A stretch of DNA of 64,000 nt, from IMG/VR virus record IMGVR_UViG_3300020577_010320. One strand, written 5' to 3'. The position numbers and the translations under genes were made by a program. Source of the stretch: a virus. The stretch's first letter is position 1, and every line of letters starts with the position of its first letter. Under the pieces are notes generated by a model. The model ran no database searches and had not been told where the DNA came from. It worked only from the letters and a program-made list of their open reading frames with translations. This document shows, in pieces, positions 16,004 through 30,048 of the stretch.

Positions 16004-16082
16004 GTCCCACCCCTGTGTAGATTGTTTCCCTCGGTTCACGGAATGATGACAGTCAGGGGTCGGCGATTTAGTGCATCGACGC

Positions 16083-16115
16083 CTAAAGAAACGGCCCCCG
16101 TGTAGGGGGCCGTTC
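16083..16115 (-). terminator. rho-independent terminator (minus strand)
   Basis: GGCCCCC-gtgta-GGGGGCC hairpin then TTTCTTT on minus strand, immediately after stop of 16120..17388. Confidence 0.55.
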
Positions 16116-16119
16116 GGAG

Positions 16120-17388: not shown

Positions 17389-17402
17389 CTACTGTTGTGC
17401 TG

Positions 17403-17735: not shown

Positions 17736-17784
17736 GTCGACCTCCGGCGGGGAGGACTATGTTTACTACTTAGCCGGCGGCTCG

Positions 17785-18266: not shown

Positions 18267-18466
18267 CCCTCCTCGTCGTAGGTGAACAACTCGTCCCTGC
18301 GGTAGCTCGGATTCGTGGCGTACCAGGGGCTACCTGGCAGCCGCTGCCAAACGTGTGTAAGGCCCGGTCCCTCACGAGGCAGACACAGATCCACGTCTGA
18401 TAGCCACTGACGCTCCACTACCACTACCGACACGCTCGTGAACCGATACAGCTTAAATCGCCCCAT
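18263..18466 (-). CDS. tandem-array small protein, LPG...ELFxYDEEG-tail family
   Basis: ends ...WQRLPGSPWYATNPSYRRDELFTYDEEG*. Confidence 0.6.
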   Translation of the reverse strand: MGRFKLYRFTSVSVVVVERQWLSDVDLCLPREGPGLTHVWQRLPGSPWYATNPSYRRDELFTYDEEG

Positions 18467-18708
18467 CACCCCTCCTCGTCGTAGACGAACAAGTCGGCGG
18501 CGCTCTGGATCCCCTCCCACCCCGGTAACGAGAGGAACACGTGATTCGTCGCGTGCCACACTCCTCCGGGGAGCAGATCTGCGTTTATGACGACGCGCCC
18601 CCCATCGTGCCGGCCCGTGCACATGTACACCGCGATGAGACTGTATACCCCACCCGTCCCGTACGAGAGGGACAGCGCCTGTCGGTGCATCGTGAACGAC
18701 CGCATCAC
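18466..18708 (-). CDS. tandem-array small protein, LPG...ELFxYDEEG-tail family
   Basis: ends ...FLSLPGWEGIQSAADLFVYDEEG*. Confidence 0.6.
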   Translation of the reverse strand: MMRSFTMHRQALSLSYGTGGVYSLIAVYMCTGRHDGGRVVINADLLPGGVWHATNHVFLSLPGWEGIQSAADLFVYDEEG

Positions 18709-18959
18709 CCCTCCTTATCGTGAGTGTACAATTCCTTCGAGCCGTTTGCGCCCGGTAAAAGGTACCACACCCGCCGCCACGCCGCCGCTTTAAGGTGTAC
18801 TCTTCGCGGGCTCTCTGGGTACGCCGCGAGATACGTGCTGAACGTGACGACGAACTCGCGATTGAACGATTGGTCTGTACTGTAGAGTATTACAATCTGA
18901 TTCGTCCGGACCGTGCATTGTTGCCTGGCGGCTCCTATCGTGAATCGCTGGTCGGACAT
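18705..18959 (-). CDS. tandem-array small protein, LPG...ELFxYDEEG-tail family
   Basis: ends ...WYLLPGANGSKELYTHDKEG*. Confidence 0.6.
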   Translation of the reverse strand: MSDQRFTIGAARQQCTVRTNQIVILYSTDQSFNREFVVTFSTYLAAYPESPRRVHLKAAAWRRVWYLLPGANGSKELYTHDKEG

Positions 18960-19154
18960 TCACCCCTCCTCGTCGTAGGTGAACAGTTCGGCGTCGGCGG
19001 TTACGGCGGAAAACATGAAAGTGGGCGGCATTGGGGCCGGGAGTGACGCCATTACCACACAGTAGGGCGACAAACGTATTGTCCGTGTCGCCCCCCGCCG
19101 CAGCATCACCGTGACGTACGTGTCGGTTTGGGTGCGTTGTCGGTAAAGGTTCAT
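18960..19154 (-). CDS. tandem-array small protein, LPG...ELFxYDEEG-tail family
   Basis: ends ...SAVTADAELFTYDEEG*. Confidence 0.55.
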   Translation of the reverse strand: MNLYRQRTQTDTYVTVMLRRGATRTIRLSPYCVVMASLPAPMPPTFMFSAVTADAELFTYDEEG

Positions 19155-19381
19155 CACCCCTCCCTGTCGAACAAGAATAACGACGCATCCCCGCCCGAGT
19201 CGTGTACCCCGCCGGGGAGGCGCTCCCATATGCGTTGTAACTCCATCAGGCATCCCACAGGGACCACGCCGCGCTTGTCGCAATGGATGTACAGGTTGTG
19301 GCGCACCCTGATCCACTTTCGACCCAACGGGTTATAGCCGCGGCTGCGACTTAAACGCACGGACGCCGTGTACGACATCAC
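19154..19381 (-). CDS. tandem-array small protein, LPG...ELFxYDEEG-tail family
   Basis: ends ...WERLPGGVHDSGGDASLFLFDREG*. Confidence 0.55.
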   Translation of the reverse strand: MMSYTASVRLSRSRGYNPLGRKWIRVRHNLYIHCDKRGVVPVGCLMELQRIWERLPGGVHDSGGDASLFLFDREG

Positions 19382-19554
19382 CCCTCCTCGTCGTAGGTGA
19401 ACAGTTCCTCATCCGGGTGCTTCCAGCCCGCATACCGCCCCGGGAGTTTGATGCCAATGTGGGCCCCGACGATGTTAATGATCGCGATCAGACTCTCGTC
19501 AACGGGGCGGACCAAGTACGCCCACATCAAAACGCGACGCATCCGGAAGGACAT
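19378..19554 (-). CDS. tandem-array small protein, LPG...ELFxYDEEG-tail family (first of block D)
   Basis: ends ...IKLPGRYAGWKHPDEELFTYDEEG*; ATG 19554 with GAGG 5 nt upstream. Confidence 0.55.
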   Translation of the reverse strand: MSFRMRRVLMWAYLVRPVDESLIAIINIVGAHIGIKLPGRYAGWKHPDEELFTYDEEG

Positions 19555-19564
19555 GCTCACCTCA

Positions 19565-19597
19565 GTAAGAAAAGCGGCGGCCCGAGAGGACCGCCGC
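19565..19597 (-). terminator. rho-independent terminator (minus strand)
   Basis: GCGGCGG-loop-CCGCCGC hairpin followed by TTTTCTT on minus strand, just after Thg1-like stop. Confidence 0.55.
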
Positions 19598-19610
19598 GCG
19601 GGTGTGACGA

Positions 19611-20438
19611 CTATGCGCCGACCAGATCGGCCTTGAGCACCGGGTCCTCGCCCTTGAGGAGGACGCCGACCCGGTTCGCGATTGAGTGGAGCTTGGGCAG
19701 GTTCAGCACCTGCACCTTGCTCCGCGTCACCAGCAGGTTGGGGTCCCGGCGGGCGGCGTGCTTCGACGGCAACGCCAGCAGCTCCGCCGCGTTGTACTTC
19801 TCAGTCACGGACCGCACCCCGACGTACGTGCCACGCTTGAAGAACGCGGGGTAGTCGTTCCAGTTGACGCCCATCTGGTGGAGCATCTCCTGCATCTGCG
19901 CGCCGTTCTTGCCCAGCATCTCCGACGGCCGGTAGTACACCCGCGTCGCGCTGGAGATGCTGTTCTTGGTCGCGTCCTGCTCCCGCCACAGGAACGTGTT
20001 GGCGGCCTCGTCGACGTTCGGGACGTTCCACACCCGACAGTCGAAGAACGCCGTCTTGTCCGCCTTCTCGGGGACGAACTCGGCCAGTCGCCGGTTGAAC
20101 TCCCCGGTCAGGAACGACGACAGCAGCGACGTCGTCTTCTGCACCCGTCCGGCGAACTGGGGGACGTTGGTGCGGTTGTCCAAGGTGTACCAGCACAGCG
20201 AGATCTCGTCGCTCTGCGTGTACCCCACGTTAGCGTTGAACGTCTTGACGAGCAGCTTGGTGCAGCAGACCATCAGGTCGTGCAGCCGCTCGTCGTACGG
20301 CTTCTCCAGACCGGCCGTGAACTTCGAGAAGCCCCACCCGTCCAGGCGGGCCATGACCGGAATCCGCGGCGTCATCAGCCGGCGGTCGGCCATCTGCTCG
20401 TACGACTTCATCCGGTCGCCCAGGTCGTCCTTCTGCAT
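19611..20438 (-). CDS. Thg1-like 3'-5' nucleotidyltransferase (tRNA-His guanylyltransferase family / TLP)
   Basis: VMARLDGWGFSKF ... YTQSDEISLCW ... FDCRVW ... GVNWNDYPAFFKRGTYV align with Thg1 RLDGRNFHRF / GQSDEYSFVF / FDGRVV / INYNNELPMYRKGT; start trimmed to MQKDDLGDRMKSYEQ with GGGAGGA SD. Confidence 0.8.
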   Translation of the reverse strand: MQKDDLGDRMKSYEQMADRRLMTPRIPVMARLDGWGFSKFTAGLEKPYDERLHDLMVCCTKLLVKTFNANVGYTQSDEISLCWYTLDNRTNVPQFAGRVQKTTSLLSSFLTGEFNRRLAEFVPEKADKTAFFDCRVWNVPNVDEAANTFLWREQDATKNSISSATRVYYRPSEMLGKNGAQMQEMLHQMGVNWNDYPAFFKRGTYVGVRSVTEKYNAAELLALPSKHAARRDPNLLVTRSKVQVLNLPKLHSIANRVGVLLKGEDPVLKADLVGA

Positions 20439-20458
20439 GTCGGTCCTCCCAGGGTGGA

Positions 20459-20725
20459 TCACTTCTTCAGCCGCTCGATCTCCATCCAGCCGTCGTACCA
20501 CGCGTGGCGGTAAATCGACGATTCGTCGGCGTACGGGTTGGCCGCCGCCGACACGTTGTTGAACCGGGCCGCCATGCCCTCCCGCTTCACGTCCGCGACC
20601 GTGTGGGCGTTCTGTGCGTTAATGTAGATAATCGTGATCAGGGTCGTGAGCACGAGGCCGCCGAACAGGACCAGAACGCAAGTCCCCAAGACGCGGCCGA
20701 CGCGCTCCCAGCGTACGCGGTCCAT
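20459..20725 (-). CDS. small membrane protein
   Basis: 88 aa, TM segment GTCVLVLFGGLVLTTLITIIYI. Confidence 0.45.
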   Translation of the reverse strand: MDRVRWERVGRVLGTCVLVLFGGLVLTTLITIIYINAQNAHTVADVKREGMAARFNNVSAAANPYADESSIYRHAWYDGWMEIERLKK

Positions 20726-20726
20726 A

Positions 20727-20963
20727 CTAGTGCCTCTCCTGTTTATAGTCAGACAGAGCCTGTCTGCCCCCTGTGTGCTCCGACAGGTAGCGTACGCGCG
20801 CCACGTAGAGCAGGCCGGCGTATACCAGGACGACGAACACCGTGAACGCCAGGCCGATGAGGCAGCTGGCGTTACGGACGACCCAACCGTTGGCCTGCGG
20901 TAACATCCTCACTCCTCTTATCAGACGTACCCCCAGTCGGCCCCGTACACGCTCGACGCCCAT
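20727..20963 (-). CDS. small membrane protein
   Basis: 78 aa, TM segment CLIGLAFTVFVVLVYAGLLYVA. Confidence 0.45.
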   Translation of the reverse strand: MGVERVRGRLGVRLIRGVRMLPQANGWVVRNASCLIGLAFTVFVVLVYAGLLYVARVRYLSEHTGGRQALSDYKQERH

Positions 20964-21277
20964 TCGTCCGTCGCGCCGGCCGCGTTGGAGGGCGTGTAGG
21001 ACTGGAGCACCTCGGCCGGCTCGAACTCGGCCAGGATACCCTCACGCTCCGCCTTGCCCTTGGCGCAGATCGCGCGGAAGAGGCGCCGGATCCCCGTCTC
21101 AGCGGCCTCCCGCGTCTTGTACTGGTAGCTCGTGTCAAGGACGACGCGCGTCTCATCGCCCTTGACGAACGCGTAGCCGGCCCACCCGGCCGACTTGTCC
21201 GTCCCCTGCCCGCCGACGTACTCGAAGCCGTCGACGCCGGTCTGCCGGATGAACGCCTGCGTACTCTCGCTGATCAT
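20921..21277 (-). CDS. hypothetical protein
   Basis: 118-aa ORF. Confidence 0.4.
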   Translation of the reverse strand: MISESTQAFIRQTGVDGFEYVGGQGTDKSAGWAGYAFVKGDETRVVLDTSYQYKTREAAETGIRRLFRAICAKGKAEREGILAEFEPAEVLQSYTPSNAAGATDEWASSVYGADWGYV

Positions 21278-21291
21278 CGCTTAGCCCTCAA

Positions 21292-21516
21292 TCATTTGGG
21301 GTTAGGGAACATCTTCTCCCACTGGCCGACGCCGGCCCATGTGGGCGTCCAGAAGTCGACGAGCCATTCCGGCGACTTAAGTTGACTCTCCACGAGTCGC
21401 TGACGATCGTATTCGGCCTCCGCCGCGTACCAAATGGGCTTGTCCCGGCCTGACGGGCGTCCAAGATGGAGCCACATGCGTCGCGCGATGTCGGACACCG
21501 CCTCGTGTCTGTCCAC
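21292..21516 (-). CDS. hypothetical protein
   Basis: 74-aa ORF, Trp-rich. Confidence 0.4.
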   Translation of the reverse strand: MDRHEAVSDIARRMWLHLGRPSGRDKPIWYAAEAEYDRQRLVESQLKSPEWLVDFWTPTWAGVGQWEKMFPNPK

Positions 21517-21603
21517 GTTACAGGACCTCCTCCAGCGACACCAACCCTACGCCCTCGCGGTACCGGGTTAGGTAAAACCGACTGACGATACGCCGGGTGG
21601 ACA

Positions 21604-21825
21604 TCACCCCTCCTCGTCTTGCACGAACAACGCCGTGTGGTCCGGCAACCGCACGTACCACATGTTGAAATAGTCAGAATTACTTGACGCGTGGTTGTCG
21701 TCCCACCCCGGATACTGTACAGCGCTCATCAATGATGTTGCGTCGATTTCGACGTAGAACTCGCCAGCCTTGAAGCCCTTGTGCTCGCTAGGATCGCACA
21801 TACGCCGAAGCCTGGTAACCACTGT
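21604..21825 (-). CDS. tandem-array small protein, LPG...ELFxYDEEG-tail family
   Basis: ends ...WYVRLPDHTALFVQDEEG*. Confidence 0.55.
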   Translation of the reverse strand, partial: TVVTRLRRMCDPSEHKGFKAGEFYVEIDATSLMSAVQYPGWDDNHASSNSDYFNMWYVRLPDHTALFVQDEEG

Positions 21826-22250
21826 CAGCCCTCCTCGTCCAGGACGAACAACTCGGCTTGGCCTTTGTTGCCGGGCAACGCCGACCAGACGGCGAGGGAC
21901 TGCGAGTCGGCCGTCCACCCGTTCGACGGCCCGAACCGCCGCAGCCGCGTCGGGAACACGCCTAAATACCGAATGTGACAACTGCAGTGATTGGGGTCAC
22001 GCCAGTCGGGCACGTCGCAGTGGTCTCCCAGTCGACCCACCACCTCGACGACGATCGCCGGCGCGTAACTCACACGACCTATGTTGACCCGGAACGGGTT
22101 GTCCGGCCCCAGAGACACGTGCGCGTTGAGACGCAGCCGTCGAACCGCGCGTGTGGCGCACGGGCACGCCTCGTCGAGCAGGCCGGCGTACCGGTCAAAC
22201 GTCGTCGCCCAGACCCAGAGGTCCTTCAACCAGGTTAGTAATCGCATCAC
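21825..22250 (-). CDS. tandem-array small protein, LPG...ELFxYDEEG-tail family
   Basis: 141 aa, ends ...WSALPGNKGQAELFVLDEEG*. Confidence 0.6.
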   Translation of the reverse strand: MMRLLTWLKDLWVWATTFDRYAGLLDEACPCATRAVRRLRLNAHVSLGPDNPFRVNIGRVSYAPAIVVEVVGRLGDHCDVPDWRDPNHCSCHIRYLGVFPTRLRRFGPSNGWTADSQSLAVWSALPGNKGQAELFVLDEEG

Positions 22251-22477
22251 CCCTCCTCGTCGTACGTGTAGAGTTCGTCGTCGACGTCGGCTTCCCAGTA
22301 TGCGCCGGGTAGATTACGGTAGAAGTCCGTCGGTTCTACACCTCTTAGCCTATCGAGCCGAACTTCAGAGTGACTCACGAGTGTAAGGCCGGTGCTGGTT
22401 ATGACGATGCGCATGTAAACCACGACGTTGTCGTCATTCCTGACAACACCACTCGTGTAGTACGTAGCGTGCATCAC
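22247..22477 (-). CDS. tandem-array small protein, LPG...ELFxYDEEG-tail family
   Basis: MMHATYYTSGVVRNDDNVVVYMRIVITSTGLTL...ELYTYDEEG*; near-duplicate of next gene. Confidence 0.65.
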   Translation of the reverse strand: MMHATYYTSGVVRNDDNVVVYMRIVITSTGLTLVSHSEVRLDRLRGVEPTDFYRNLPGAYWEADVDDELYTYDEEG

Positions 22478-22707
22478 CCCTCCTCGTCGTATGTGTAGAG
22501 TTCGTCTCTATCGGCACCGGACGCACGATACGCGCCGGGTAACCCACAGCAGACGTCCGGCGTTGCTACACCTCTTAGCCTCTGTAACCAAACGTCCACA
22601 CGACTCGAGAGTGTAAGGCCGGTGCTGGTTATGACGACGCGCATGTAAACCGTGACGCTGTCGTAATCTCTGACAACACCACTCGTGTAGTACGTAGCGT
22701 GCATCAC
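22474..22707 (-). CDS. tandem-array small protein, LPG...ELFxYDEEG-tail family
   Basis: MMHATYYTSGVVRDYDSVTVYMRVVITSTGLTL...ELYTYDEEG*; near-duplicate of previous. Confidence 0.65.
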   Translation of the reverse strand: MMHATYYTSGVVRDYDSVTVYMRVVITSTGLTLSSRVDVWLQRLRGVATPDVCCGLPGAYRASGADRDELYTYDEEG

Positions 22708-22910
22708 CCCTCCTCGTCGTACGCGAACAACTCAAACCTCCTATTCGGGTCCCAGCCGGGCAAGTCGAACCACGCGCGGTCGCTGCTCGATATCGCACTG
22801 TGTCTGCACGTGGCGATAACCGAGCCGAGTGCCGTGCCGAGTGCGTCGTGCAGATGCCACCGGCCGAACATCCGTTCTATCCGGTGTATCTTTACGTGTT
22901 CCACCGTCAC
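22704..22910 (-). CDS. tandem-array small protein, LPG...ELFxYDEEG-tail family
   Basis: ends ...WFDLPGWDPNRRFELFAYDEEG*. Confidence 0.6.
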   Translation of the reverse strand: MTVEHVKIHRIERMFGRWHLHDALGTALGSVIATCRHSAISSSDRAWFDLPGWDPNRRFELFAYDEEG

Positions 22911-23155
22911 CCCTCCTCATCGAACACGAACAACTCATCGACGTTAGCACCACCGGGTAGGTCGGCCCACGTGGTGTACCAGTCCGACAGCCGAGTCTCG
23001 TCCACCCGCCACCACCCCAGGGGGAGTACTGGGTGGAGGTGTCGCTTGTGAGGGATAAAGGCCGCAGACTGTCCGTGTAGCTGAATCTGGTAGTGTACGG
23101 TGACCGTGCCGCTAACTTCGCGCACGACACGAATCACATGGTACTCGGCCGTCAT
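22907..23155 (-). CDS. tandem-array small protein, LPG...ELFxYDEEG-tail family
   Basis: ends ...WADLPGGANVDELFVFDEEG*. Confidence 0.6.
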   Translation of the reverse strand: MTAEYHVIRVVREVSGTVTVHYQIQLHGQSAAFIPHKRHLHPVLPLGWWRVDETRLSDWYTTWADLPGGANVDELFVFDEEG

Positions 23156-23383
23156 TCACCCCTCCGGATCTGGAACGAACAGCTCTAGCGTCCGGTCGAA
23201 CCCCGGACTGTAATACGCCCCACCAGGCAACTTAGACCAGACCCCCCACCGGCTGGTCCGTGCACGATGTATGAGGGTGCTGTACTGTTTTTCGTCGCCG
23301 ATGGGGTGGACGACCATCGTCCAGGTCACGTCGACGCCGTAGTCGCCGCGGTACATGCGGCTTAACGTGAACGTCGCAGTCAT
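23156..23383 (-). CDS. tandem-array small protein, LPG...ELFxYDEEG-tail family
   Basis: ends ...WSKLPGGAYYSPGFDRTLELFVPDPEG*. Confidence 0.55.
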   Translation of the reverse strand: MTATFTLSRMYRGDYGVDVTWTMVVHPIGDEKQYSTLIHRARTSRWGVWSKLPGGAYYSPGFDRTLELFVPDPEG

Positions 23384-23578
23384 TCATCCCTCCTCGTCGT
23401 AGACGAACAATTCATCAAGTTTATTCGGCACCCACCCGGGAAGGAGCCTCCACGTCGAGTCACCACGACAAGGATTCACACCGAAGGCGGTGCAGCCGTC
23501 GATGCACCCGAGACGGTAACCATCGGCGTTTTCCAATCGCCAGACAGCGTGCAATCGCTCGATCGTGCGGAGCATCAC
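23384..23578 (-). CDS. tandem-array small protein, LPG...ELFxYDEEG-tail family
   Basis: ends ...WRLLPGWVPNKLDELFVYDEEG*. Confidence 0.6.
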   Translation of the reverse strand: MMLRTIERLHAVWRLENADGYRLGCIDGCTAFGVNPCRGDSTWRLLPGWVPNKLDELFVYDEEG

Positions 23579-23781
23579 CCCTCCTCATCGTAGACGAATA
23601 GAGTGGACGGCCCCGGCAACCAGTACCAGACACGGTCCGGCTCCCCTATTATAGGGTCCATCAGGAGGCGAAATTCGTTGACCACTGAGTTTACGGCGAC
23701 CGCCACAGTCACGACGCAGTAGCCGGGCCCACGTGTCACTCGTATCACGCGGTGTGAGATGAGCATTAGCGGCCTCAACAC
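23575..23781 (-). CDS. tandem-array small protein, LPG...ELFxYDEEG-tail family
   Basis: ends ...WYWLPGPSTLFVYDEEG*. Confidence 0.6.
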   Translation of the reverse strand: MLRPLMLISHRVIRVTRGPGYCVVTVAVAVNSVVNEFRLLMDPIIGEPDRVWYWLPGPSTLFVYDEEG

Positions 23782-24005
23782 GGGTTAAGGATCTCCGAGA
23801 ACTGTCCGTCAGCCCGGCGGATGAAGACTGTGCCGCCGGCCGTGACCTGTTGGTCGAGATACTGGGCGAACTCCACGAGGCGGTGGAGTTCGGTCGTCAC
23901 AGACGTGTCGGTCAGCACCGCCCGCGCCTCGATCTTCCGGAGCGTGTCGGCCCGGACCATCACAGTCAACTTGACCAGGTCTTCAAGCGGTTCGGCCACG
24001 GTCAT
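23775..24005 (-). CDS. hypothetical small protein (non-family insert)
   Basis: 76 aa MTVAEPLEDLVKL...; ATGA overlap with upstream family gene stop. Confidence 0.45.
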   Translation of the reverse strand: MTVAEPLEDLVKLTVMVRADTLRKIEARAVLTDTSVTTELHRLVEFAQYLDQQVTAGGTVFIRRADGQFSEILNPC

Positions 24006-24208
24006 CCCTCCTCGTCTAAGGTGAACAGGCTGCCGAAGTCGGGCATTTTGTTGAACCACACGTCGTACAGGTCCCGGACCCGGGGGTAGCTCGGGGTCGG
24101 CTCGTTCAGCCTGGTGAACGCGATCAGGGCCGACGGCAGGCGAGGATACCAGAACACCTCCACCACCAGCGCGTTGCCGCCGCGCTTTCGCCACACTGAC
24201 GCAGTCAT
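24002..24208 (-). CDS. tandem-array small protein, LPG...ELFxYDEEG-tail family
   Basis: ends ...WFNKMPDFGSLFTLDEEG*. Confidence 0.6.
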   Translation of the reverse strand: MTASVWRKRGGNALVVEVFWYPRLPSALIAFTRLNEPTPSYPRVRDLYDVWFNKMPDFGSLFTLDEEG

Positions 24209-24436
24209 TCACCCCTCCTCGTCTAAAGTGAACAACTCGGTCATGTCCGGTAGGGCTTTCCACAAGAGAATCATCGTGGCGTCTGACTCATTCGCCACGG
24301 ACGACTCGTAGAACTCGATGTCTTTTCTCCACCGGCGTAGTATTACTATCCGGCGGTAGAGACCGTCACAGCCGTCCGCGTACCCGTAGTCGCGTGTCAT
24401 GTGTACGCCGTCCCAGCTAGGTGCGGACACTGTCAC
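24209..24436 (-). CDS. tandem-array small protein, LPG...ELFxYDEEG-tail family
   Basis: ends ...WKALPDMTELFTLDEEG*. Confidence 0.6.
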   Translation of the reverse strand: MTVSAPSWDGVHMTRDYGYADGCDGLYRRIVILRRWRKDIEFYESSVANESDATMILLWKALPDMTELFTLDEEG

Positions 24437-24654
24437 CCCTCCTGGTCGTGTACGTACAGGTCACGCTCGTCTGGTAACGACCCCCACAGGTCCCTCATCC
24501 GCCAATCCGGGTCCTGAACGGTCAGATGCGGGAACACAAAGTCTCGGTTGGGGCCGACCGCCCAACAAACAGTGTAAACGACGTTGAATCCGTACCCGAC
24601 GTAAGACCGGTCGCGCCAAAGCGTTACGCCGCTGTGCTCGTTAGGTGACGCCAT
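24433..24654 (-). CDS. tandem-array small protein, LPG...ELFxYDEEG-tail family
   Basis: ends ...WGSLPDERDLYVHDQEG*. Confidence 0.6.
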   Translation of the reverse strand: MASPNEHSGVTLWRDRSYVGYGFNVVYTVCWAVGPNRDFVFPHLTVQDPDWRMRDLWGSLPDERDLYVHDQEG

Positions 24655-24901
24655 CACCCCTCCTTGTCGTGGACGAACAGTTCGTCGCCGTTCGGTAACA
24701 TCTCTTGAAACCACCACTGACATAGCTGAAGCATACCGGGTGACGCGTCGTTGCTCGACCACGTGCAGAATTTCACCAGGTTGTCAGTCCAGGCGCGGTC
24801 CGGGTCGGTGTATCGGCACACGATCCGGTACTGTCCGCACGATCCGGCGTCGTCGAAGAACCCTTCGTCGCGGTACATGCTCCAGCTCGTAAACCACACG
24901 T
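24654..24901 (-). CDS. tandem-array small protein, LPG...ELFxYDEEG-tail family
   Basis: ends ...FQEMLPNGDELFVHDKEG*. Confidence 0.55.
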
Positions 24902-25146
24902 CACCCCTCCCGGTCGAGTTTGAACGCGTCGCCCCCGCTCGGCAATAAGCGGAACACTCTGAACGTCTCCCAGACTTTGACCGCCCCACGCCGGTGTAAG
25001 TCGTCCAAGTGGTGGAATCGCATGGTGCTGTGACGCTTGCCGTACCGCACTACGGCCGTGTACTTGAGCATCCCTTCGGACTTAACAGTCTCGGTTGTTA
25101 CTCCGTACCACATGCGCCGGACGCTCTGCGTTCGAGACACGGTCAC
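24901..25146 (-). CDS. tandem-array small protein, degenerate tail
   Basis: ends ...FRLLPSGGDAFKLDREG*. Confidence 0.5.
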   Translation of the reverse strand: MTVSRTQSVRRMWYGVTTETVKSEGMLKYTAVVRYGKRHSTMRFHHLDDLHRRGAVKVWETFRVFRLLPSGGDAFKLDREG

Positions 25147-25412
25147 CCCTCTTCATCGTGAACGAACAGGCCGACGTCGCCAGGCAGAGACAACCACACC
25201 CGCCGGAGCTCCCACACCGCCAGCGTCGGCTTGACGCGAGAAGCGTAAAGATGAGGAAACCCGACGGACGCACAGAGACCGAAGCCCCGACCTGCAGCTT
25301 GATGTAAGCTGACGTCGAATGCGAACGGCCCGCGGCCTTGTATCGCGGTTCGGTTGAAGCGGCGGTAGAACCCGGACAGACCGCGTCTTAGCCTTATAAT
25401 ATGACACGACAT
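25143..25412 (-). CDS. tandem-array small protein, LPG...ELFxYDEEG-tail family
   Basis: ends ...WLSLPGDVGLFVHDEEG*. Confidence 0.6.
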   Translation of the reverse strand: MSCHIIRLRRGLSGFYRRFNRTAIQGRGPFAFDVSLHQAAGRGFGLCASVGFPHLYASRVKPTLAVWELRRVWLSLPGDVGLFVHDEEG

Positions 25413-25415
25413 GGG

Positions 25416-25646
25416 TCACCCCTCCCCGTCCCAGACGAACAGAGTTTTGCCGTTCGGCAGTTTGTTGATGTAGGCGTCGTGCGTCAGCAACCGGAATCTG
25501 TGCCTCCGGCCGCCCTCGTACATCGTCCCGAACCGGGAGAACGCGACGAACGCTGGTGCGGGGCCGTTCGCGAAGTCGTCGATCACGAGGACCCGAAACT
25601 CATACAGGTCACGCTCACGCGCCATGAGGTAGATCACGGCGGTCAC
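25416..25646 (-). CDS. tandem-array small protein, LPG...ELFxYDEEG-tail family
   Basis: ends ...YINKLPNGKTLFVWDGEG*. Confidence 0.6.
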   Translation of the reverse strand: MTAVIYLMARERDLYEFRVLVIDDFANGPAPAFVAFSRFGTMYEGGRRHRFRLLTHDAYINKLPNGKTLFVWDGEG

Positions 25647-25845
25647 CCCTCCTCATCGTAGGTGAACAGGTCGTCGAAGTTGGGCAGCTCGTCGAACAAG
25701 TAGCCGCGGGGGGCTTTCGTCAGGCCGCCGTTTGCGTACGGTAGTGGTGTGACGCGGACACACCACACACAACCCCAACCAGTCATAACGCCGGGCCAGC
25801 TACCGAACCAGAACCGATTCGGCCGCAATCCTAAGTGGGCGGTCA
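25643..25845 (-). CDS. tandem-array small protein, LPG...ELFxYDEEG-tail family (first of block E)
   Basis: MTAHLGLRPNRFWFG...LFDELPNFDDLFTYDEEG*; start ATG 25845 preceded by vestigial unit-end CTGTTCATACGAGGAGGGTCGGTATGA. Confidence 0.6.
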
Positions 25846-25869
25846 TACCGACCCTCCTCGTATGAACAG

Positions 25870-25900
25870 CTAAAAACAACCCGAGCCGTAGGCGCTCGGG
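25870..25900 (-). terminator. rho-independent terminator (minus strand) downstream of tRNA
   Basis: CCCGAGC-gcctacg-GCTCGGG hairpin followed by TTGTTTTTAGCT on minus strand. Confidence 0.55.
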
Positions 25901-25906
25901 CGTGAG

Positions 25907-25991
25907 TGGCGGTGCGGGCAGGAGTCGAACCTGCACGCCTGTCGGGGCGGGCCCTGAACACGGGCCTGTGTCTACACTTCACCACCGCACC
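25907..25991 (-). tRNA. tRNA gene with encoded CCA, long (type II-like) variable arm; anticodon tentatively GUU (Asn) but loop atypical
   Basis: minus strand: GGTGCGG acceptor / CCGCACC-G-CCA 3' end; T-arm GCAGG-TTCGACT-CCTGC; anticodon stem GGCCC/GGGCC with loop GUGUUCA; 15-nt variable region CGCCCCGACAGGCGU; 3-bp D stem. Confidence 0.7.
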
Positions 25992-25998
25992 GTGGTCG

Positions 25999-28635
25999 TC
26001 AGCCGACGTCCAGCGACGTCGAGTACTCGATCGTCTCCGACATGACGGTCAGCACCATCCCGTCGGCCGCCACGTAGTACGTGGCCTCGTCGGCCGCCTT
26101 GGTCTGGGCGGCCAGCTCCGGGTACTGCGTCGTCAGGTCGTCGTGGGTCAGGCCCGGCACGTCGAACTTGGCCGGCGTCATGCCGGACGCGCCCGTCGTG
26201 AACACGTACGGCTGGACCGACGTCCGGTACAGGTCGTCGAACTGGTCGGCCACGAGACGGGCCGCCTGGTCGATCGCGGACTGGGCCTCGGAGGCGTCCT
26301 CGCAGGCCGAGTACCCGCACCCGAGCACGCTGACCAGCTCGTGGGCCCCGAGCGTGGTCAGCGTGCTGGACGTGTCCCGGAGCAGCTTCTTCTCGCCCAT
26401 GAGCTGCATGAACGTGCTCACGACGACCGTCGCCAGGGCCGTGTCCGACTCGTGCCTGGCGCTCACCGCGACCTTGCTCTTCCCGCCCGTGACCCCCTCG
26501 AACCAGCCCCGCAGGGTGGTCTCCTTGGTCGGGACGGGCTTCTTGTCGACGGTGAGCGAGAAGTACTTCCGGAACAGCTCGTTCCCGGACGGCAGGTCCA
26601 GGGACGCGACGTCCACCGTCCCGATCGAGATCACGTACCCCTTGCGGAAGTCGATCAGCCCGCGCTGGACGAAATCCTGGTACGCCGGGTTGTCCTTCTT
26701 CAGCCGGACGCCCTTCGGGGCGGGCGGGTACGGGTTGGCCGACGGCGCGCTGAAGTACCCGGCCGGCGTCAGGTTCCACGCCTTGTACGCCTCCTTGGCT
26801 TCCGGGGACAGGTTGTCGGGGTCGCCGCTCTTGAGGGCGTTGAGGAACTTCATCATGACCGCCAGAGACAGCAGACGGTCGAACATGTGGCGGGTGACGC
26901 CGTGACTACCCGAGTCGTCCACGGTCACCACCGGCCGGTTTTCGAAGGAGACGACGTACGTCTCGCCGGCGAAGAAGCCGTCTTTGCCGTCCGCCTTCGT
27001 CACCGCCCCGATCCGCCGCAGGGCGTTGTACATGGGTTGGGTGTTGATCCGGATCGGCAGGCGCGGCGTGCAGACCCTGCCGTCGCCCACCAGCGTGAAC
27101 TGACGGTACGTCTGCAGCTTGGGCGCCGGCACGCCGCCCAGGTCGTCGCCGTACTTCAGGGTCTTCCCGGTGACGATGTTCTCCAGGACGACGTCCTGCA
27201 CCACCCGGAGGTTGACGGTCGCCGTGTTGCGGTTCGTCTCGAACGCCGTCGGCTTGGCCAGCTGGCCGGAGAGCGCGACGGCGCGGACCGGGTTGGGCTC
27301 GAACGTCGCCTCGCCGGCGTCGTCGACCACCCACTTCCCCTGCCGGCTCTTGAGGCCGCGGCGTTGGTACGCCTGGTACACCTCGGCCGGGTCGACGAGG
27401 AAGTCGCCCATGTGGCGCTTGAGCGTGTTGATCACGCCCATCACGGACACGCGGTCGTCCTCGCCGGCCGGGGCGTACTCGCGGCCGGTCAGGTCGCCGG
27501 CGATCAGCAGGGCGTCGAGCTCGGCGGCGAACGCGCCCAGGTCCTCCTGGTCCAGGGCGTCGCGGTACCGCTTGACCAGGGCGACGTCCTCGGAGGCGAG
27601 GAGCGCCGTCTTGGCCACGTTCAGGCGGCCGGCGGCCAGGGCGGCGCGGGCCAGGGCGTACGCCGCCTTGCCGCGCTGGGCCGCCGGGAACGCGGACTTG
27701 TCGTACTCGGCCTCGTCCGTGAACTTGAACTGGTACACCGTCGCTTCGCCCGGGGCGAGGGCCGGCACCAGCAGGTCGGCCTGCCCGCACGCGACCCGCT
27801 TGGACTGCGAGCCGGTCACCACCTGGCAGTTGAACCCCTTGGGCAGCGGGAACAGCTGGGCCGGCTCCGAGCACGTCTCCCGCAGCTTCGCCGCCGACGC
27901 GTACATGGCGTTGTACACCTCGGCCAGCGTGCCGCTCTTGACGGCCGTCCCGCCGCCGGTCGTCGCCAGGGTGCCGAGCAGGCGGACGTCGCCCCACCCG
28001 TGACAGACGGTGTTCAGGTACGCGTTCTTCTCGGCGAGGGACGCGGCGAGCCGGGTCAGCTTCCGCTCCTCGGAGGCGGACGACGGGTCGTTGAAGTACC
28101 CGTCCGTGTGCAGGACGATGCAGGTCGTCTCGTCCGGGTCGAGCGCGTCGACCGCGGCCTCCAGGGCCTGCGACGCGCAGGTCATGCACGACGCCGTGAT
28201 GCGGTCGATCGCCCGCTGCTCGGCGGAGTTGCGGGCGTTCACCTGGGAGATCGGGCTCCGGATGAACTCCTCCCGGCAGTCGCCCTGGCTGCTGTACGTG
28301 TACAGGCTGACCTTGAAGTTCGCGTCCTGCTTGTACTCGTCCACCGCCAGCAGCTTCTTGATCTCCGCCCTCATGCCCTCGATCTGGCCGTACATCGACC
28401 CCGAGCGGTCGACGATCAGGACCAGGTGGGCGACCTTGGTCTGGACCGGCGCCTCGGCCACCGCCGGCACGGCGACCTCGAACGCGTTACAGAGCACGTA
28501 CTGCAGCGCGTCGCCGTTCTGGCTGTACGTCCGGAACTTCACCGACCGCGGCACGCCGCCGGTCCTCTCCACCGCCGTCCGGTCGCCGGTCTTCGTCTTG
28601 GTGACCGGAGCCTTCGCCGTCTTCGTCTTAGCCAT
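25999..28635 (-). CDS. large von Willebrand factor A (VWA) domain protein
   Basis: LVLIVDRSGSMYG (MIDAS DxSxS) ... TCIVLHTDGYFND; start trimmed to MAKTKTAKAP (ATG 28633-28635) with AAGGGGA SD; ~878 aa. Confidence 0.7.
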   Translation of the reverse strand: MAKTKTAKAPVTKTKTGDRTAVERTGGVPRSVKFRTYSQNGDALQYVLCNAFEVAVPAVAEAPVQTKVAHLVLIVDRSGSMYGQIEGMRAEIKKLLAVDEYKQDANFKVSLYTYSSQGDCREEFIRSPISQVNARNSAEQRAIDRITASCMTCASQALEAAVDALDPDETTCIVLHTDGYFNDPSSASEERKLTRLAASLAEKNAYLNTVCHGWGDVRLLGTLATTGGGTAVKSGTLAEVYNAMYASAAKLRETCSEPAQLFPLPKGFNCQVVTGSQSKRVACGQADLLVPALAPGEATVYQFKFTDEAEYDKSAFPAAQRGKAAYALARAALAAGRLNVAKTALLASEDVALVKRYRDALDQEDLGAFAAELDALLIAGDLTGREYAPAGEDDRVSVMGVINTLKRHMGDFLVDPAEVYQAYQRRGLKSRQGKWVVDDAGEATFEPNPVRAVALSGQLAKPTAFETNRNTATVNLRVVQDVVLENIVTGKTLKYGDDLGGVPAPKLQTYRQFTLVGDGRVCTPRLPIRINTQPMYNALRRIGAVTKADGKDGFFAGETYVVSFENRPVVTVDDSGSHGVTRHMFDRLLSLAVMMKFLNALKSGDPDNLSPEAKEAYKAWNLTPAGYFSAPSANPYPPAPKGVRLKKDNPAYQDFVQRGLIDFRKGYVISIGTVDVASLDLPSGNELFRKYFSLTVDKKPVPTKETTLRGWFEGVTGGKSKVAVSARHESDTALATVVVSTFMQLMGEKKLLRDTSSTLTTLGAHELVSVLGCGYSACEDASEAQSAIDQAARLVADQFDDLYRTSVQPYVFTTGASGMTPAKFDVPGLTHDDLTTQYPELAAQTKAADEATYYVAADGMVLTVMSETIEYSTSLDVG

Positions 28636-28711
28636 GACACATCCCCTTAGTGTGCGTCGGTCGGCAACGGCGCCTCTCGACAAGTGATAGTGACACGATG
28701 CGCGGCAGAAT

Positions 28712-28957
28712 TCAGCCACCCAGGTGGGCGTACTCGTCGACGTCCAGGACGAACAGGGTTTCGTCGCGCGGGAACCCTGTGTAATTGATGTCCGCGCGCC
28801 ACCGGGTGTCAAGGGGCTGGTACTTAGGCAAGTTGCTCACCACCCTGAACACCCACCTCGGCGGACAGCCGAGGACGCCACACGAAATGTCACCCTCTAA
28901 GCCGCAGGCGCACCCCATGCGGCGGTACACCTCCATGAACCACTTCGGCTTCGACAT
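28712..28957 (-). CDS. tandem-array small protein, degenerate/extended tail
   Basis: ...RDETLFVLDVDEYAHLGG*; start MSKPKW overlapping upstream TGA. Confidence 0.45.
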   Translation of the reverse strand: MSKPKWFMEVYRRMGCACGLEGDISCGVLGCPPRWVFRVVSNLPKYQPLDTRWRADINYTGFPRDETLFVLDVDEYAHLGG

Positions 28958-29183
28958 CAGCCCTCCTCGTCGTAGGTGAACAGCGTAGTCCCGTTCGGTA
29001 ACAAACTGGAGTACACGCCGTTGACCAGGTCGTACCACGTTGTCGCGTAGGTCTCCGGTTTCACCTGTATCTCCGACAGGTCCGCATAAGCGCTGCCGTC
29101 AGTGGCGTACAGATATACCGACATGTAAGCTCTGAGATTTGTGGCTCTACACATGCGGTACTGCGTTGCCTTACGTAGCACGT
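28957..29183 (-). CDS. tandem-array small protein, LPG...ELFxYDEEG-tail family
   Basis: ends ...SSLLPNGTTLFTYDEEG*; identical 15-aa tail to next gene. Confidence 0.6.
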
Positions 29184-29446
29184 CAGCCCTCCTCGTCGTA
29201 GGTGAACAGCGTAGTCCCGTTCGGTAACAGGTGCGAACCCTTACGTCGGCGACCGCGGTCGTTGTAAGACCAGACGTATCGCCCTGGCTCCAGTCGCAAC
29301 CTGACACTTCGCCAGACGCCGTCATAGGCATAGCGTGTGTGTACTTCGCACGCGTTGGCACAGCTCCTGTTGTGCGTCTTGGCCCGCGATACCACGACCG
29401 TTTTACGGCTAGAGAGCGTCGTCCCACGATCCACAGACGTCGTCAT
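29183..29446 (-). CDS. tandem-array small protein, LPG...ELFxYDEEG-tail family
   Basis: ends ...SHLLPNGTTLFTYDEEG*. Confidence 0.6.
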   Translation of the reverse strand: MTTSVDRGTTLSSRKTVVVSRAKTHNRSCANACEVHTRYAYDGVWRSVRLRLEPGRYVWSYNDRGRRRKGSHLLPNGTTLFTYDEEG

Positions 29447-29447
29447 G

Positions 29448-29669
29448 TCAGCCCTCCGCGTCGAGCACGAACAGTTCGCTCAGGCACCCGTCGTCCGCCA
29501 CCTGGCGCGGCAGGCGTTGCAGGATCCGCTTGTACCGCTTGCTACCGCTCTTACCGGCCCCGCGTTGCTTTATCTCCGCCCAGCCGCCGTACTTGTACTC
29601 GACGTACACGCACGGCGGGTTCTTGCGAGTGTCACGAAACACGTCGGTAGTATGACGCTTACCACTCAT
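29448..29669 (-). CDS. tandem-array small protein, LPG...ELFxYDEEG-tail family
   Basis: ends ...LQRLPRQVADDGCLSELFVLDAEG*. Confidence 0.55.
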   Translation of the reverse strand: MSGKRHTTDVFRDTRKNPPCVYVEYKYGGWAEIKQRGAGKSGSKRYKRILQRLPRQVADDGCLSELFVLDAEG

Positions 29670-30048
29670 GTTCCAACCTCGCGGCCTCGGGGATGATGGC
29701 GGGCGTCTCCGCGAACTCGGCGGTGTCGCATACGAACAATTCCTGGCGGTTCGGCAGGAGGTCCCAGACCTGCCAAAAGTCCTTGGGCTTCCCCTTGAGT
29801 CGCTTCGCCTCGGCCTTGGAGATCCCCCACCGGCGGTTCTTAGGTTCGCGCATGGTGGGCGGCGCGAGTACGTAAGCGGCGTCGATGAATGACGCCATAC
29901 ATATCATCCCAGGATGACCACTGTACTCGGTCAGGTAGGACACCTCGACCATCGCCACCTCCCGCGTGCGCGCGTTCTCGTCGGCGAGCATCGGCCGCTT
30001 GGCAAACCGCCGCGCCTCGATGTACCGGCACTCCCGCACAGATTCCAT
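29659..30048 (-). CDS. family member with internal tail motif and C-terminal extension
   Basis: ...WQVWDLLPNRQELFVCDTAEFAETPAIIPEAARLEHEW*; motif internal, no DEEG stop. Confidence 0.5.
   Translation of the reverse strand: MESVRECRYIEARRFAKRPMLADENARTREVAMVEVSYLTEYSGHPGMICMASFIDAAYVLAPPTMREPKNRRWGISKAEAKRLKGKPKDFWQVWDLLPNRQELFVCDTAEFAETPAIIPEAARLEHEW

Follow-up and report, generated by a model that had tools for sequence, protein, structure and literature searches.

A tandem array of small genes with a shared C-terminal module in an uncultivated large phage

In the viral record IMGVR_UViG_3300020577_010320, small genes follow one another on a single strand and their products end in nearly the same residues, while the remainder of each protein, which we call the body, differs. 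The question raised by this locus is whether such genes are copies of one another that have diverged, or whether unrelated bodies have been moved in and out between conserved 3' elements. We analyzed 64,000 nucleotides of this record, hereafter the window. An earlier note on this DNA had proposed ongoing tandem duplication and rapid N-terminal divergence at 22247-29446, and had named three gene pairs as examples. All three pairs are found where it placed them. The interval is too narrow: the array covers 5-30048 and continues off the window at its left edge. Our reading, to which we assign a probability of roughly 0.65, is that the array is one previously undescribed, lineage-specific multigene family in an uncultivated large phage.

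The array and its members

In the window, 76 co-oriented family genes encoding 60-140 amino acids (median 76) lie on the minus strand between positions 5 and 30048, where they occupy about 60% of the 30 kb. The array extends beyond position 1, as contig L027 carries at least three further members past the left edge, giving a family total of at least 79 (76 in the window and at least three on L027). Three islands of other genes interrupt it:

5..30048, minus strand: the whole array within the window, 76 family genes
14107..17784, minus strand: island with a metallophosphatase (16120-17388) and several ORFans, from the ORF and domain scan
19561..21603, minus strand: island with a Thg1-like gene (19611-20501) and small ORFs, from the ORF and domain scan
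19574-19597: strong intrinsic terminator, which parts the Thg1 island from the next run of family genes
25907-25991: tRNA-Asn, adjoining the VWA island
25999..28812, minus strand: island inside the interval of the earlier note, a VWA-domain protein with a DxSxS motif (DRSGS), from Pfam and the sequence

Homologs of the VWA protein elsewhere are found in neighborhoods without the mini-gene family. The phage also encodes multisubunit-RNA-polymerase-like proteins.

The array far exceeds chance expectation. Strict tails occur 68 times on the minus strand versus 0 times on the plus strand, and a degenerate 24-nt tail pattern gives 32 matches versus 0 expected. The family HMM unites 75 stop-to-stop ORFs at E<1e-3, all of them (75/75) on the minus strand and confined to the first 30.1 kb. 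Coding statistics indicate that the members are real, translationally coupled coding sequences. GC is 0.76 at third and 0.47 at second codon positions of the family bodies, with GC3 above GC2 in 76/76 genes, and TGA is the stop codon in 68/68 strict members. We observed the following junctions between successive members (n=75): 30 TGATG overlaps, 18 overlaps of 4 nt, and 18 gaps of 0-5 nt. In 66/75 junctions the next start thus overlaps the preceding stop or lies no more than 5 nt from it, just downstream of Shine-Dalgarno-like tail codons. The ATG of TGATG is a likelier start than the GTG one codon upstream.

An assembler that collapses or mis-joins repeats could create an apparent array, and the short-read contigs of other samples do end at tails and at an AT-rich element (7703, 11997, 18290). 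However, about 16 kb of the array recurs, ungapped and with 0-4 mismatches, in assemblies made independently from four sequencing runs. The bodies are unique sequences, and the repeats are only about 30 nt long. We therefore give an assembly artefact practically no credence.

Local paralogs and the divergence of bodies

We removed W..LPG and the tail from the members and scored the resulting 2278 body pairs against a null. Five pairs are clearly above noise, and all five are 1-3 genes apart, while 2270 of the 2278 are at null level. The four strongest are at most two genes apart and the fifth is three apart; pairs at most two genes apart make up 5.8% of all pairs, so that the chance for the top four is about 1e-5. 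At distances of six or more genes, 3/1953 pairs pass the 99.9% null threshold, and these only marginally. The 99% null threshold is exceeded by 26 pairs versus 22.8 expected, which agrees with the earlier statement that most other neighbors share only the tail. No DNA-level similarity between bodies was found in any frame, including frame-shifted comparisons. The members of the five pairs are as follows:

22247..22474, minus strand: copy 2 of the MHATYYTSGVVR pair, younger tandem paralog, 75 aa, 69% amino acid and 81% nucleotide identity to 22474-22704
22474..22704, minus strand: copy 1 of the MHATYYTSGVVR pair, younger tandem paralog, 76 aa; the pair is mosaic
8340..8741, minus strand: double-unit member, 133 aa, with an internal tail relic LPGG..ELFVWDEVDGG; paralog of 8983-9387; two HMM stretches match
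8983..9387, minus strand: double-unit member, 134 aa, paralog of 8340-8741
18027..18263, minus strand: paralog of 18466-18705 (MRAFKMYRDSLSL...), with one unrelated member between the two
18466..18705, minus strand: paralog of 18027-18263 (MRSFTMHRQALSL...), body score 84-118
10110..10433, minus strand: paralog of 10663-11001 (..RVFR..GVQW..WY..), two genes apart, body score 86, z about 11
10663..11001, minus strand: paralog of 10110-10433, body score 86, z about 11
22704..22910, minus strand: member of the 'IER...W...LPGW' subfamily; its weak paralog 23384-23575 is three genes away, from the subfamily alignment
23384..23575, minus strand: LPGW-subfamily member, with an ortholog (P0035) in the related phage that is 51% identical

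Two of the three pairs named earlier are among these five local pairs, so they do stand out from non-adjacent members. The genes 22247-22474 and 22474-22704 are the top body pair of the 2278 (local score 172-194, null maximum 58) and are similar over their whole length as had been claimed, although the identity is 69% in amino acids and 81% in nucleotides rather than about 75%. The genes 18027-18263 and 18466-18705 (rank 3-4 of 2278, z about 19) share the N-terminus that was pointed out, and their likeness runs over the whole length, at 44% amino acid and 63% nucleotide identity. The body scores are 127-148 for 8340-8741 versus 8983-9387 and 44-72 for 22704-22910 versus 23384-23575. As 8340-8741 and 8983-9387 are paralogous double units, the fusion of two units predates that duplication. 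Their neighbors 8741-8986 and 8101-8343 are weakly similar (z 4.2), which suggests that a unit of two genes may have been duplicated here. A strict two-gene-unit duplication was rejected for the array, given this weak support at 8101-9387 and none at 17785-18705 or 9901-11001. Because bodies above noise are all 1-3 genes apart, and contig L005 from a distant relative has its own adjacent triplet of paralogs, the proposed birth of members by tandem or local duplication is supported.

The earlier note also proposed fast body divergence with a conserved tail, and the substitution rates bear this out. Body dN/dS is 0.90 in the young pair 22247-22474/22474-22704 (dS 0.26), 0.5-0.98 in the L005 triplet, and 0.23, 0.85, 0.16 and 0.60 for four orthologs in the related phage that are 44-63% identical; in the tail, dN is about 0. 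The differences in the young pair are distributed 13/9/12 over the three codon positions. These rates show that bodies are weakly constrained and change almost neutrally until no pairwise similarity is left, and that the tail is under strong purifying selection.

To call the divergence N-terminal, as had been done, is imprecise. In the young pair the bodies diverge at the center: codons 1-32 are 93% identical in nucleotides versus 66% for codons 33-65, and synonymous differences are 1/22.5 versus 9.7/24.7 sites (Fisher p=0.005). In the recent pairs no part of the body is better conserved than the extreme N-terminus. Identity of 100% begins within the upstream tail of the young pair, TACGACGAGGAGGGGTG. 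We rejected the target of a diversity-generating retroelement as an explanation for the variable part, as it has no A bias (T>C 9, G>A 7, G>T 5 etc.). Its differences are evenly spread over codon positions, and no reverse transcriptase was detected among the ORFs scanned.

With 2270 of 2278 body pairs at null and no DNA-level or frame-shifted homology, the bodies might not be homologous at all; the C-terminal module and junction would then have been grafted repeatedly, by partial duplication, onto unrelated or de novo ORFs. The DNA here is GC-rich and long alternative-frame ORFs are plentiful in it, and the pair 28957/29183 described below resembles exactly such a graft. We nonetheless consider this origin unlikely. 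Sizes are uniform (median 76 aa), and all bodies have an unusual composition in common, in which V, R, Y, W, and C are abundant. The LPGW subfamily, whose members are dispersed, aligns over the full length and has an N-terminal h-x-R/ER motif in common, and two AlphaFold models agree on three N-terminal strands and a helix. In addition, divergence at dN/dS of 0.5-0.9, with dS reaching saturation, suffices to erase similarity. We infer that all bodies descend from a common ancestor because they share the module, are alike in size and composition, and show weak subfamily motifs.

The shared tail, junctions, and proposed recombination

The C-terminal consensus of the family products is W-x2-LPG-x(3-20)-[DE]LF[VT][YFLH]-D-E-E-G-stop, a shared module of about 25 amino acids in which W-x2-LPG and the final [DE]LF[VT][YFLH]DEEG-stop are separated by a loop of 3-20 amino acids. 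Since the last three codons, GAG GAG GGG/GGA, together with TGA supply the following gene with its Shine-Dalgarno sequence and stop-start junction, the tail is constrained twice over, once as protein and once as translation signal. In GAGGAGGGGTGATG, for example, GGAGG sits 4 nt ahead of the ATG. Of the members, 87% use GGG or GGA for the terminal Gly, versus 29-37% in the background, and at position -3 the residue varies (E, G, K, A, R, Q) with the codon nearly always ending in G. Junctions have lower GC and less structure than bodies.

Taken with the uniform TGA stops, the GGAGG spacing and these codon biases would fit a 3' sequence selected only for Shine-Dalgarno and stop-start coupling, with the peptide as a by-product and the ORFs as unrelated ORFans. 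This is very improbable in our view, because conservation covers nine codons plus an LPG at variable distance upstream, far beyond the needs of a Shine-Dalgarno sequence, and because residues are kept where codons are not. Leu at -8 is coded by six codons, Asp at -4 by GAC (55) and GAT (13), F and E also vary synonymously, and the substitutions seen are F/Y and V/T/I/A. Tails without a coupled downstream gene retain DEEG or DQEG in non-SD codons, such as GAT GAA GAA GGT at 11546 and GAC CAG GAA GGA at 7875. On contig L005 the peptide motif persists with different junction types and TAA stops. As synonymous variation and uncoupled tails keep the residues, selection on the motif also acts at the level of the protein.

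In three events a breakpoint falls within the tail or at its edge: the mosaic young pair, an identical tail on unrelated bodies, and an indel relative to a related phage. The features concerned in the latter two are:

28957..29181, minus strand: member whose last 44 nt and stop are identical to those of its upstream neighbor; the bodies are unrelated (body score 22)
29183..29446, minus strand: upstream partner carrying the identical LLPNGTTLFTYDEEG tail, from the tail comparison
23575..24001, minus strand: 427-bp segment comprising the member 23575-23781 and the non-family ORF 23782-24001, from comparison with the composite of the related phage

The tail identity in the first pair is as previously noted, with the last 15 amino acids (LLPNGTTLFTYDEEG) the same on unrelated bodies (28th percentile). 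The run of 44 nt plus stop (47 nt) compares with 27 nt for the next longest in the array. The related phage is represented by a 2.1-kb composite (REL) of three short contigs, L046, L025, and L026, from different samples. In it the 427-bp two-gene segment is absent and the flanking orthologs abut stop-to-start, so the indel fits precisely into the junction of a tail stop with the following start. In the same 2.1-kb composite, a single 129-aa gene stands where the window has two genes, and the upstream neighbor differs.

Over about 16 kb of the array, contigs of this phage recovered from four samples share at least 99.8% identity and have zero gaps. Gene content differs between related phages and is stable among near-identical strains. 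The duplication had been called ongoing, which the data do not support: the youngest pair is at 81% nucleotide identity and dS 0.26, and the contigs from the four samples show no copy-number change. As no near-identical copies and no copy-number polymorphism were seen, the rate of duplication is low relative to divergence.

These observations show that new copies arise locally, with breakpoints in the conserved tail or at the junction. We propose that duplication would occur by unequal homologous recombination between the conserved 3' ends of 27-45 nt, and would be followed by slow birth-and-death, with occasional gene conversion and one gene fusion.

The same events could instead reflect cassette shuffling, in which the 3' element is primarily a recombination site (compare attC, pilS, and vls) and bodies are swapped in rather than diverged. 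The 44 nt and stop shared by unrelated bodies, the tail-bounded whole-gene indels in the comparison with the relative, and the mid-gene breakpoint of the mosaic pair would all fit. Like integron arrays, this one is a long run of small co-oriented ORFs, each with a conserved 3' element. However, the element here is a stretch of about 30 nt within the ORF and lacks an attC-like imperfect palindrome. No hairpins were found at junctions from -70 to +10 (mean fold z +0.24, 4% below -2), and an integron array was rejected for want of an attC-type imperfect inverted repeat there. No recombinase domain, integrases included, was detected in the 30 non-family ORFs scanned within the window, on a contig that extends further. 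There are no silent donor copies, because 66/75 junctions place the next start just downstream of the Shine-Dalgarno-like tail codons; an antigenic-variation system with one expression site and silent donors was rejected as well, since members are complete ORFs with coupling at these junctions. Tail identity is 73% at every distance (permutation p=0.05), without the homogenization that would attend concerted evolution, which we also rejected. Finally, the syntenic orthologs in the relative, at 44-63% identity, point to vertical inheritance of bodies. We find a cassette system, which the earlier note had suggested as a comparison, quite improbable. Recombination at the 3' element fares better, in that the three events have breakpoints there, while the tails otherwise are not homogenized. 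Local duplication with divergence of the bodies remains our preferred reading.

Distribution, possible function, and known systems

The family is confined to a narrow lineage of uncultivated large phages encoding RNA-polymerase-like proteins. An HMM search of 1.84 billion representative proteins gave 37 hits at E<=0.001, most of them proteins of the same phage; P0030, P0033, and P0035 are hits on short contigs of the related phage. A word-indexed search of 5.8 billion proteins gave 7 hits even at E<=10. The DNA tail patterns matched one related contig only, L005, in IMG/VR, and in metagenome and GTDB genome collections gave single hits without a family-like C-terminal context. A codon-independent peptide pattern matched 24 stretches in all of IMG/VR, with 0 confirmed. 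Among cultured phages, megablast gave no DNA match for the region and tblastn of a family member gave chance hits only. No family member was found within +/-10 kb of relatives of the RNA-polymerase-like protein on 24 contigs, which is uninformative because the array is 29 kb from that gene in the window.

None of the 64 members searched matched any family in PHROGs or PADLOC, and Pfam gave a single spurious hit for them (E=0.001). A sequence profile search of the PDB found no match at E<=10, and Foldseek of AlphaFold models against the PDB found none below E=1. A literature search for the motif or a comparable phage family returned nothing specific. The two AlphaFold models both have a low-confidence pLDDT of 63; they have the arrangement of strands and helix described above, with the tail a strand in one and coil in the other. 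Each protein may be a small beta-rich domain in which a basic body, with V, R, Y, W, and C in abundance, precedes an acidic tail. The C-terminal module might be a structural core strand or a common docking tag, and the variable bodies could form a diversified repertoire of host-interaction effectors for takeover or anti-defense. Diversified effectors with a common C-terminal module are our best guess at function.

A more specific idea, which we regard as doubtful, is that the module is an acidic docking address tag for one common partner, in which case the approximately 80 genes would be the largest single-family library of tagged, fast-diversifying mini-effectors known in a phage. The partner may be the virion or ejection machinery, a host hub protein, or the array-encoded VWA protein with its DxSxS motif. 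In two sources (PMC12373910, PMC9391042), the T-even internal proteins (Ip1-3 and at least 10 others) are described as otherwise unrelated small proteins with a short capsid-targeting peptide in common; the peptide leads to packaging and injection, and each variable body inhibits a different host defense (GmrSD variants). The array resembles them in architecture only, as a short conserved peptide on otherwise unrelated bodies. Its tag differs in being C-terminal, about 25 aa long, acidic, and overlapping the Shine-Dalgarno sequence of the next gene, at a copy number about tenfold higher. The T-even tag is N-terminal and is cut by the prohead protease, while the array tag is not known to have a protease site or to be associated with virions. 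The conserved 5' motif of the hypervariable ip loci reportedly also acts as recombination homology (Repoila et al. in 1994). A targeting role of the array tag is purely hypothetical. If it were true, the system would be like the T4 internal proteins but C-terminal and about tenfold larger, with tag DNA that doubles as ribosome-binding site and recombination homology.

In poxviruses, ASFV, and giant viruses, the growth of gene families through tandem duplication is well documented, while tandem gene amplification in phages is known mainly from the laboratory. No other phage is known to us in which a single family has about 80 tandem members. With at least 79 members, the array is a natural, old, and very large phage example of such expansion. 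It has the features of a multigene family, namely at least three adjacent co-oriented paralogs, neighbors that are the closest relatives, and content that differs between related phages. Like viral accordions (poxvirus K3L, ASFV MGF, giant-virus paralogs, T4 dmd-tifA), it consists of tandem co-oriented small accessory paralogs, with recombination between short homologies and weakly constrained lineage-specific content. For T4, PMC9391042 describes how recombination at short homologies amplifies segments with small accessory genes in tandem, including an 85-aa inhibitor gene amplified via 6-10-bp microhomologies. Unlike active accordions, the array has no near-identical copies or copy-number polymorphism, and it is old and diverged. 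Also unlike viral accordions, its recombination homology would be the conserved coding motif itself, which is at once peptide motif, ribosome-binding site of the next gene, and stop-start junction. The array offers a clean system for asking how large sets of small accessory proteins are built up and kept by phages, how quickly similarity is lost (5/2278 body pairs clearly above noise), and what the shared C-terminal motif does.

In cluster K mycobacteriophages, start-associated sequences (SAS) repeat a ribosome-binding-site motif directly upstream of many starts. Like the array, they are a conserved nucleotide motif that contains a ribosome-binding site and recurs at many genes of one phage genome. 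However, SAS are intergenic and non-coding and their genes are not paralogs, whereas the array motif codes for the C-terminus of the preceding paralog.

Extent and anatomy of the array

A search for the conserved tail found 68 ORFs between positions 5 and 29669, all 68 of them on the minus strand. A profile built from those 68 matched 75 stop-to-stop ORFs (E<1e-3) and, weakly, one more, again all on the minus strand and none past 30.1 kb. A degenerate 24-nt tail pattern occurs 32 times versus 0 expected, and a contig that extends the array past the left edge of the window carries at least three further members. The feature is much larger than the interval (22247-29446) singled out in the earlier note.

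Members are 60-140 aa long (median 76). Of 75 junctions, 30 have the one-base stop/start overlap TGATG, 18 overlap by 4 nt, 18 have a gap of 0-5 nt, and only 9 have a larger gap. The array is split into runs by three islands of non-family genes and by strong intrinsic terminators, of which there are at least two (19574-19597, 3671-3688). By consensus, a variable body is followed by W-x2-L-P-(G/N/D), a 3-20-residue loop, and (D/E)-L-(F/Y)-(V/T)-(Y/F/L/H/W)-D-E-E-G-stop. The bodies are real coding sequence, since GC3 is 0.76 compared to a GC2 of 0.47 and exceeds it in 76/76. Their composition is unusual, with V, R, Y, W and C abundant and A, K, E and Q scarce, and the median net charge is +2 for the body and -4 for the tail. 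Two members (8340-8741 and 8983-9387) contain an internal tail relic, ...LFVWDEVDGG..., and are fused double units. At the edges of runs, two degenerate members on the minus strand (28712-28956 and 29659-30048) have extra residues after the tail and no stop there (...ETLFVLDVDEYAHLGG and ...ELFVCDTAEFAETPAIIPEAARLEHEW); both resemble copies that are read through or in decay.

Two constraints on the conserved tail

The final codons, GAG-GAG-GGG-TGA(TG), place GGAGG four bases 5' of the next ATG. The terminal glycine codon is GGG or GGA in 87% of members versus 29-37% in other genes, the stop codon is TGA in 68/68 strict members, and at position -3 the amino acid varies while the third base of the codon is nearly always G. 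Compared to the bodies, the junctions have lower GC and weaker predicted structure.

We considered whether the tail could be a ribosome-binding site alone, and rejected this. The motif is more than that because there is constraint at the protein level: the Leu at -8 uses six codons and the Asp at -4 both of its codons, tail replacements are conservative (F/Y and V/T/I/A), and the spacing between the tail and the LPG motif upstream varies. Tails without a coupled downstream gene keep the amino acids with codons that do not form a Shine-Dalgarno sequence, such as GAT GAA GAA GGT TGA (11546) and GAC CAG GAA GGA TGA (7875). The distant relative L005 (IMGVR_UViG_3300020577_005315) also keeps the peptide, yet it has 2-3-nt spacers, TAA stops, and a last glycine that is mostly GGC. 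Two constraints, a translation signal and a protein motif, overlap on the tail.

Duplication, divergence and recombination

The earlier note cited three gene pairs as signs of tandem duplication, and all three are real. The pair 22247-22474/22474-22704 (hereafter the young pair) is 69% identical in protein and 81% in DNA. The pair 18027-18263/18466-18705 has a common N-terminus and 44% identity across the whole length. The pair 28957-29181/29183-29446 has an identical 15-residue tail (44 identical nt plus the stop) on bodies that, as the note had said, are unrelated. We stripped the W..LPG and tail and then aligned the bodies in all 2278 pairings. The 99.9% null threshold was exceeded by eight pairs versus 2.3 expected, and only four were far above it (null maximum 58): 22474/22247 (score 172), 8983/8340 (127), 10663/10110 (86) and 18466/18027 (84). 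Two of the cited pairs thus rank first and third or fourth, so the possibility that they are no more similar than non-adjacent members fails. Each of the four top pairs is one or two genes apart, and a fifth local pair, 23384/22704 (score 44), is three genes apart. The remaining pairs are at the null level (26 above the 99% threshold versus 22.8 expected), and no DNA-level or frame-shifted similarity between bodies was found. Where an A-x-A' pattern recurs, similarity of the intervening genes is confined to 8101-9387 (z 4.2). In keeping with tandem duplication, L005 has an adjacent paralog triplet of its own (52-65% aa identity); the middle gene of this triplet (L005:4597-4827) has a 12-residue internal micro-duplication (MYRYYGTTSFVRMYRYYHMAS), which shows that small-scale slippage acts inside bodies too.

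The claim that bodies diverge quickly is also upheld. In the young pair dS is 0.26 and body dN/dS is 0.90, while tail dN is 0. Its structure is mosaic: identity is 93% in codons 1-32, where 22.5 sites have 1 synonymous difference, and 66% in codons 33-65, where 24.7 sites have 9.7 (Fisher p=0.005). In codons 33-65 the differences fall evenly on the codon positions and have no adenine bias. In the L005 triplet dN/dS is 0.5-0.98. A 2.1-kb composite of a related phage, joined from three short and cleanly overlapping contigs of other samples (L046, L025, L026), is syntenic with window 24916-23298, and its four orthologs are 44-63% identical to those in the window, with body dN/dS of 0.23, 0.85, 0.16 and 0.60. 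Given the dN/dS values of the young pair, the triplet and the orthologs, purifying selection on the bodies is weak and uneven, which suffices for similarity to be lost over the lifetime of the family.

Duplication is slow relative to divergence, and the description of it as ongoing is not supported, because four sequencing runs yielded contigs of the same phage that match window 1-7703, 11997-18292 and 22692-24664 without gaps and with 0-4 mismatches, and the youngest paralogs have already diverged by 19%. Five recognizable pairs among 76 genes fit slow birth-and-death rather than an active accordion.

The other proposal, that recombination between conserved 3' elements shuffles bodies in the manner of cassettes, stands only in part. 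Recombination events bounded by tails were observed. In the young pair perfect identity begins inside the tail of the upstream gene, so the duplication or conversion boundary lies in the conserved element. The identical tail on the unrelated bodies of 28957-29181 and 29183-29446 spans 47 nt, when the second-longest exact run has 27 nt. The window also has a 427-bp segment, made up of one family gene and one non-family ORF, that is missing from the related phage, where the flanking orthologs abut stop-to-start; the related phage also has one 129-aa gene versus two genes in the window, and the upstream neighbour differs. However, a dedicated mechanism moving bodies at the conserved 3' element is not supported: tail identity (27 nt) is 73% at every distance (permutation p=0.05), the junctions show no tendency to form hairpins (z +0.24), the scanned ORFs yielded no recombinase, and all members are complete ORFs with the next start at or adjoining the preceding stop in 66/75 junctions.

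In other samples, short-read assemblies of this phage stop at window 7703, 11997 and 18290, which are family tails or a conserved AT-rich element. Repeats of ~30 nt can by themselves break de Bruijn assemblies, and metagenomic contigs probably under-represent such arrays as a result. The AT-rich element is a block of ~135 nt that is 100% identical between window 7665-7800 (minus strand) and L005:6270-6405, although L005 is otherwise highly diverged, and in both phages it lies just downstream of the final gene in a family run. It contains a (UUC)6 run, which is FFFFFF within a 73-aa ORF (7623-7844), and two perfect hairpins, (CUU)n/(AAG)n and GUGUCUUUUUCC/GGAAAAAGACAC (MFE -45 kcal/mol, z -2.3). 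In Rfam it has only a weak sub-threshold match to Phe_leader (23 bits vs 55). The block could be a leader or attenuator, a non-coding RNA, or a small mobile element.

Distribution, possible function and genomic surroundings

Pfam, PHROGs, PADLOC and PDB sequences contain no match to the family. When 1.84 billion representative proteins were searched exhaustively with an HMM, there were 37 matches at E up to 0.001, most of them proteins of the window phage and a few on short contigs of a related phage. Tail DNA patterns found one related IMG/VR contig and otherwise isolated single matches without family context, and a codon-independent peptide pattern found only 24 stretches among 2.9 million viral contigs. 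The family is a narrow lineage-specific expansion. Two AlphaFold runs, on the whole family and on the subfamily with an LPGW motif, each gave a pLDDT of 63. Both models have three N-terminal strands and a short helix bearing the conserved Trp ahead of LPG, but they differ on the tail, which is coil in one, while LFVY forms a fourth strand in the other. Foldseek found no match in the PDB below E=1.

Judged solely by their pattern (tiny, fast-turnover proteins from lineage-specific, translationally coupled genes with one invariant module), the members bear the hallmarks of accessory phage genes for host interaction. In architecture they come closest to the T-even internal proteins, in which a short common targeting peptide is carried on otherwise unrelated bodies, each blocking a different GmrSD variant (PMC12373910; PMC9391042). 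Viral multigene families that arise through unequal recombination are already known, with T4 as an experimental precedent (PMC9391042), and the array is one of them. Its novelty lies in the family, in its scale for a phage, and in a conserved 3' element that serves at once as peptide motif, ribosome-binding site and recombination homology.

The window (GC ~62%, two tRNAs) looks like part of a large uncultivated phage. The genes discussed below are:

16120-17388: metallophosphatase
19611-20501: Thg1-like tRNA-His guanylyltransferase gene
25999-28812, minus strand: VWA-domain protein of 937 aa, mid-array, with a DxSxS motif (DRSGS)
30314-31501: RNA ligase, flanking the array
31577-33209, minus strand: SPFH/Band 7 protein and PspA/IM30-like protein (the latter below the Pfam cut-off), adjacent genes just past the array
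55257-57140 and 59037-63410, minus strand: multisubunit-RNA-polymerase beta/beta'-like genes

There was no nucleotide match to the window among 50,697 cultured-phage records; exact window proteins are also found on a JGI contig of 76,963 bp and, for several sequencing runs, in Logan assemblies. The polymerase-like protein has at least 24 relatives on uncultivated IMG/VR phage contigs (L055-L078; 40-46% identity, 44-62% GC, contigs up to 226 kb), and these proteins define a clade of at least 24 such contigs. The nearest cultured relatives, Vibrio phage D69 and Salmonella phage Arash, are only ~28% identical.

DxSxS is the beginning of the metal-site (MIDAS) signature of VWA domains. Across 96% of its length, the VWA protein is 30-32% identical to its best homologs, which occur in Gemmata genomes and large metagenomic contigs and hint at a planctomycete host. 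We speculate that this protein could in principle bind the invariant acidic tail; against this, the family is absent from the neighbourhoods of its homologs in Gemmata genomes, large metagenomic contigs and other phage contigs.

The metallophosphatase, Thg1-like and RNA ligase genes are interleaved with or flank the array and could be a tRNA or RNA repair set; a metallophosphatase-like ORF is near the array in L005 too. SPFH/Band 7 and PspA/IM30-like proteins are membrane-remodelling or membrane-stress proteins, unusual for a phage. At 20459-20725 (minus strand), an 88-aa ORF whose N-terminus is hydrophobic matches ribosome modulation factor below the threshold (RMF; 23.1 bits vs 27.9). ARAGORN calls a tRNA-Asn (GTT) of 85 nt, long for its isotype, at 25907-25991 (minus strand). 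The longest ORF of the family gene 25643-25936 overlaps this tRNA, and its true start is probably an internal ATG near 25846, with GAGGAGGG just before it.
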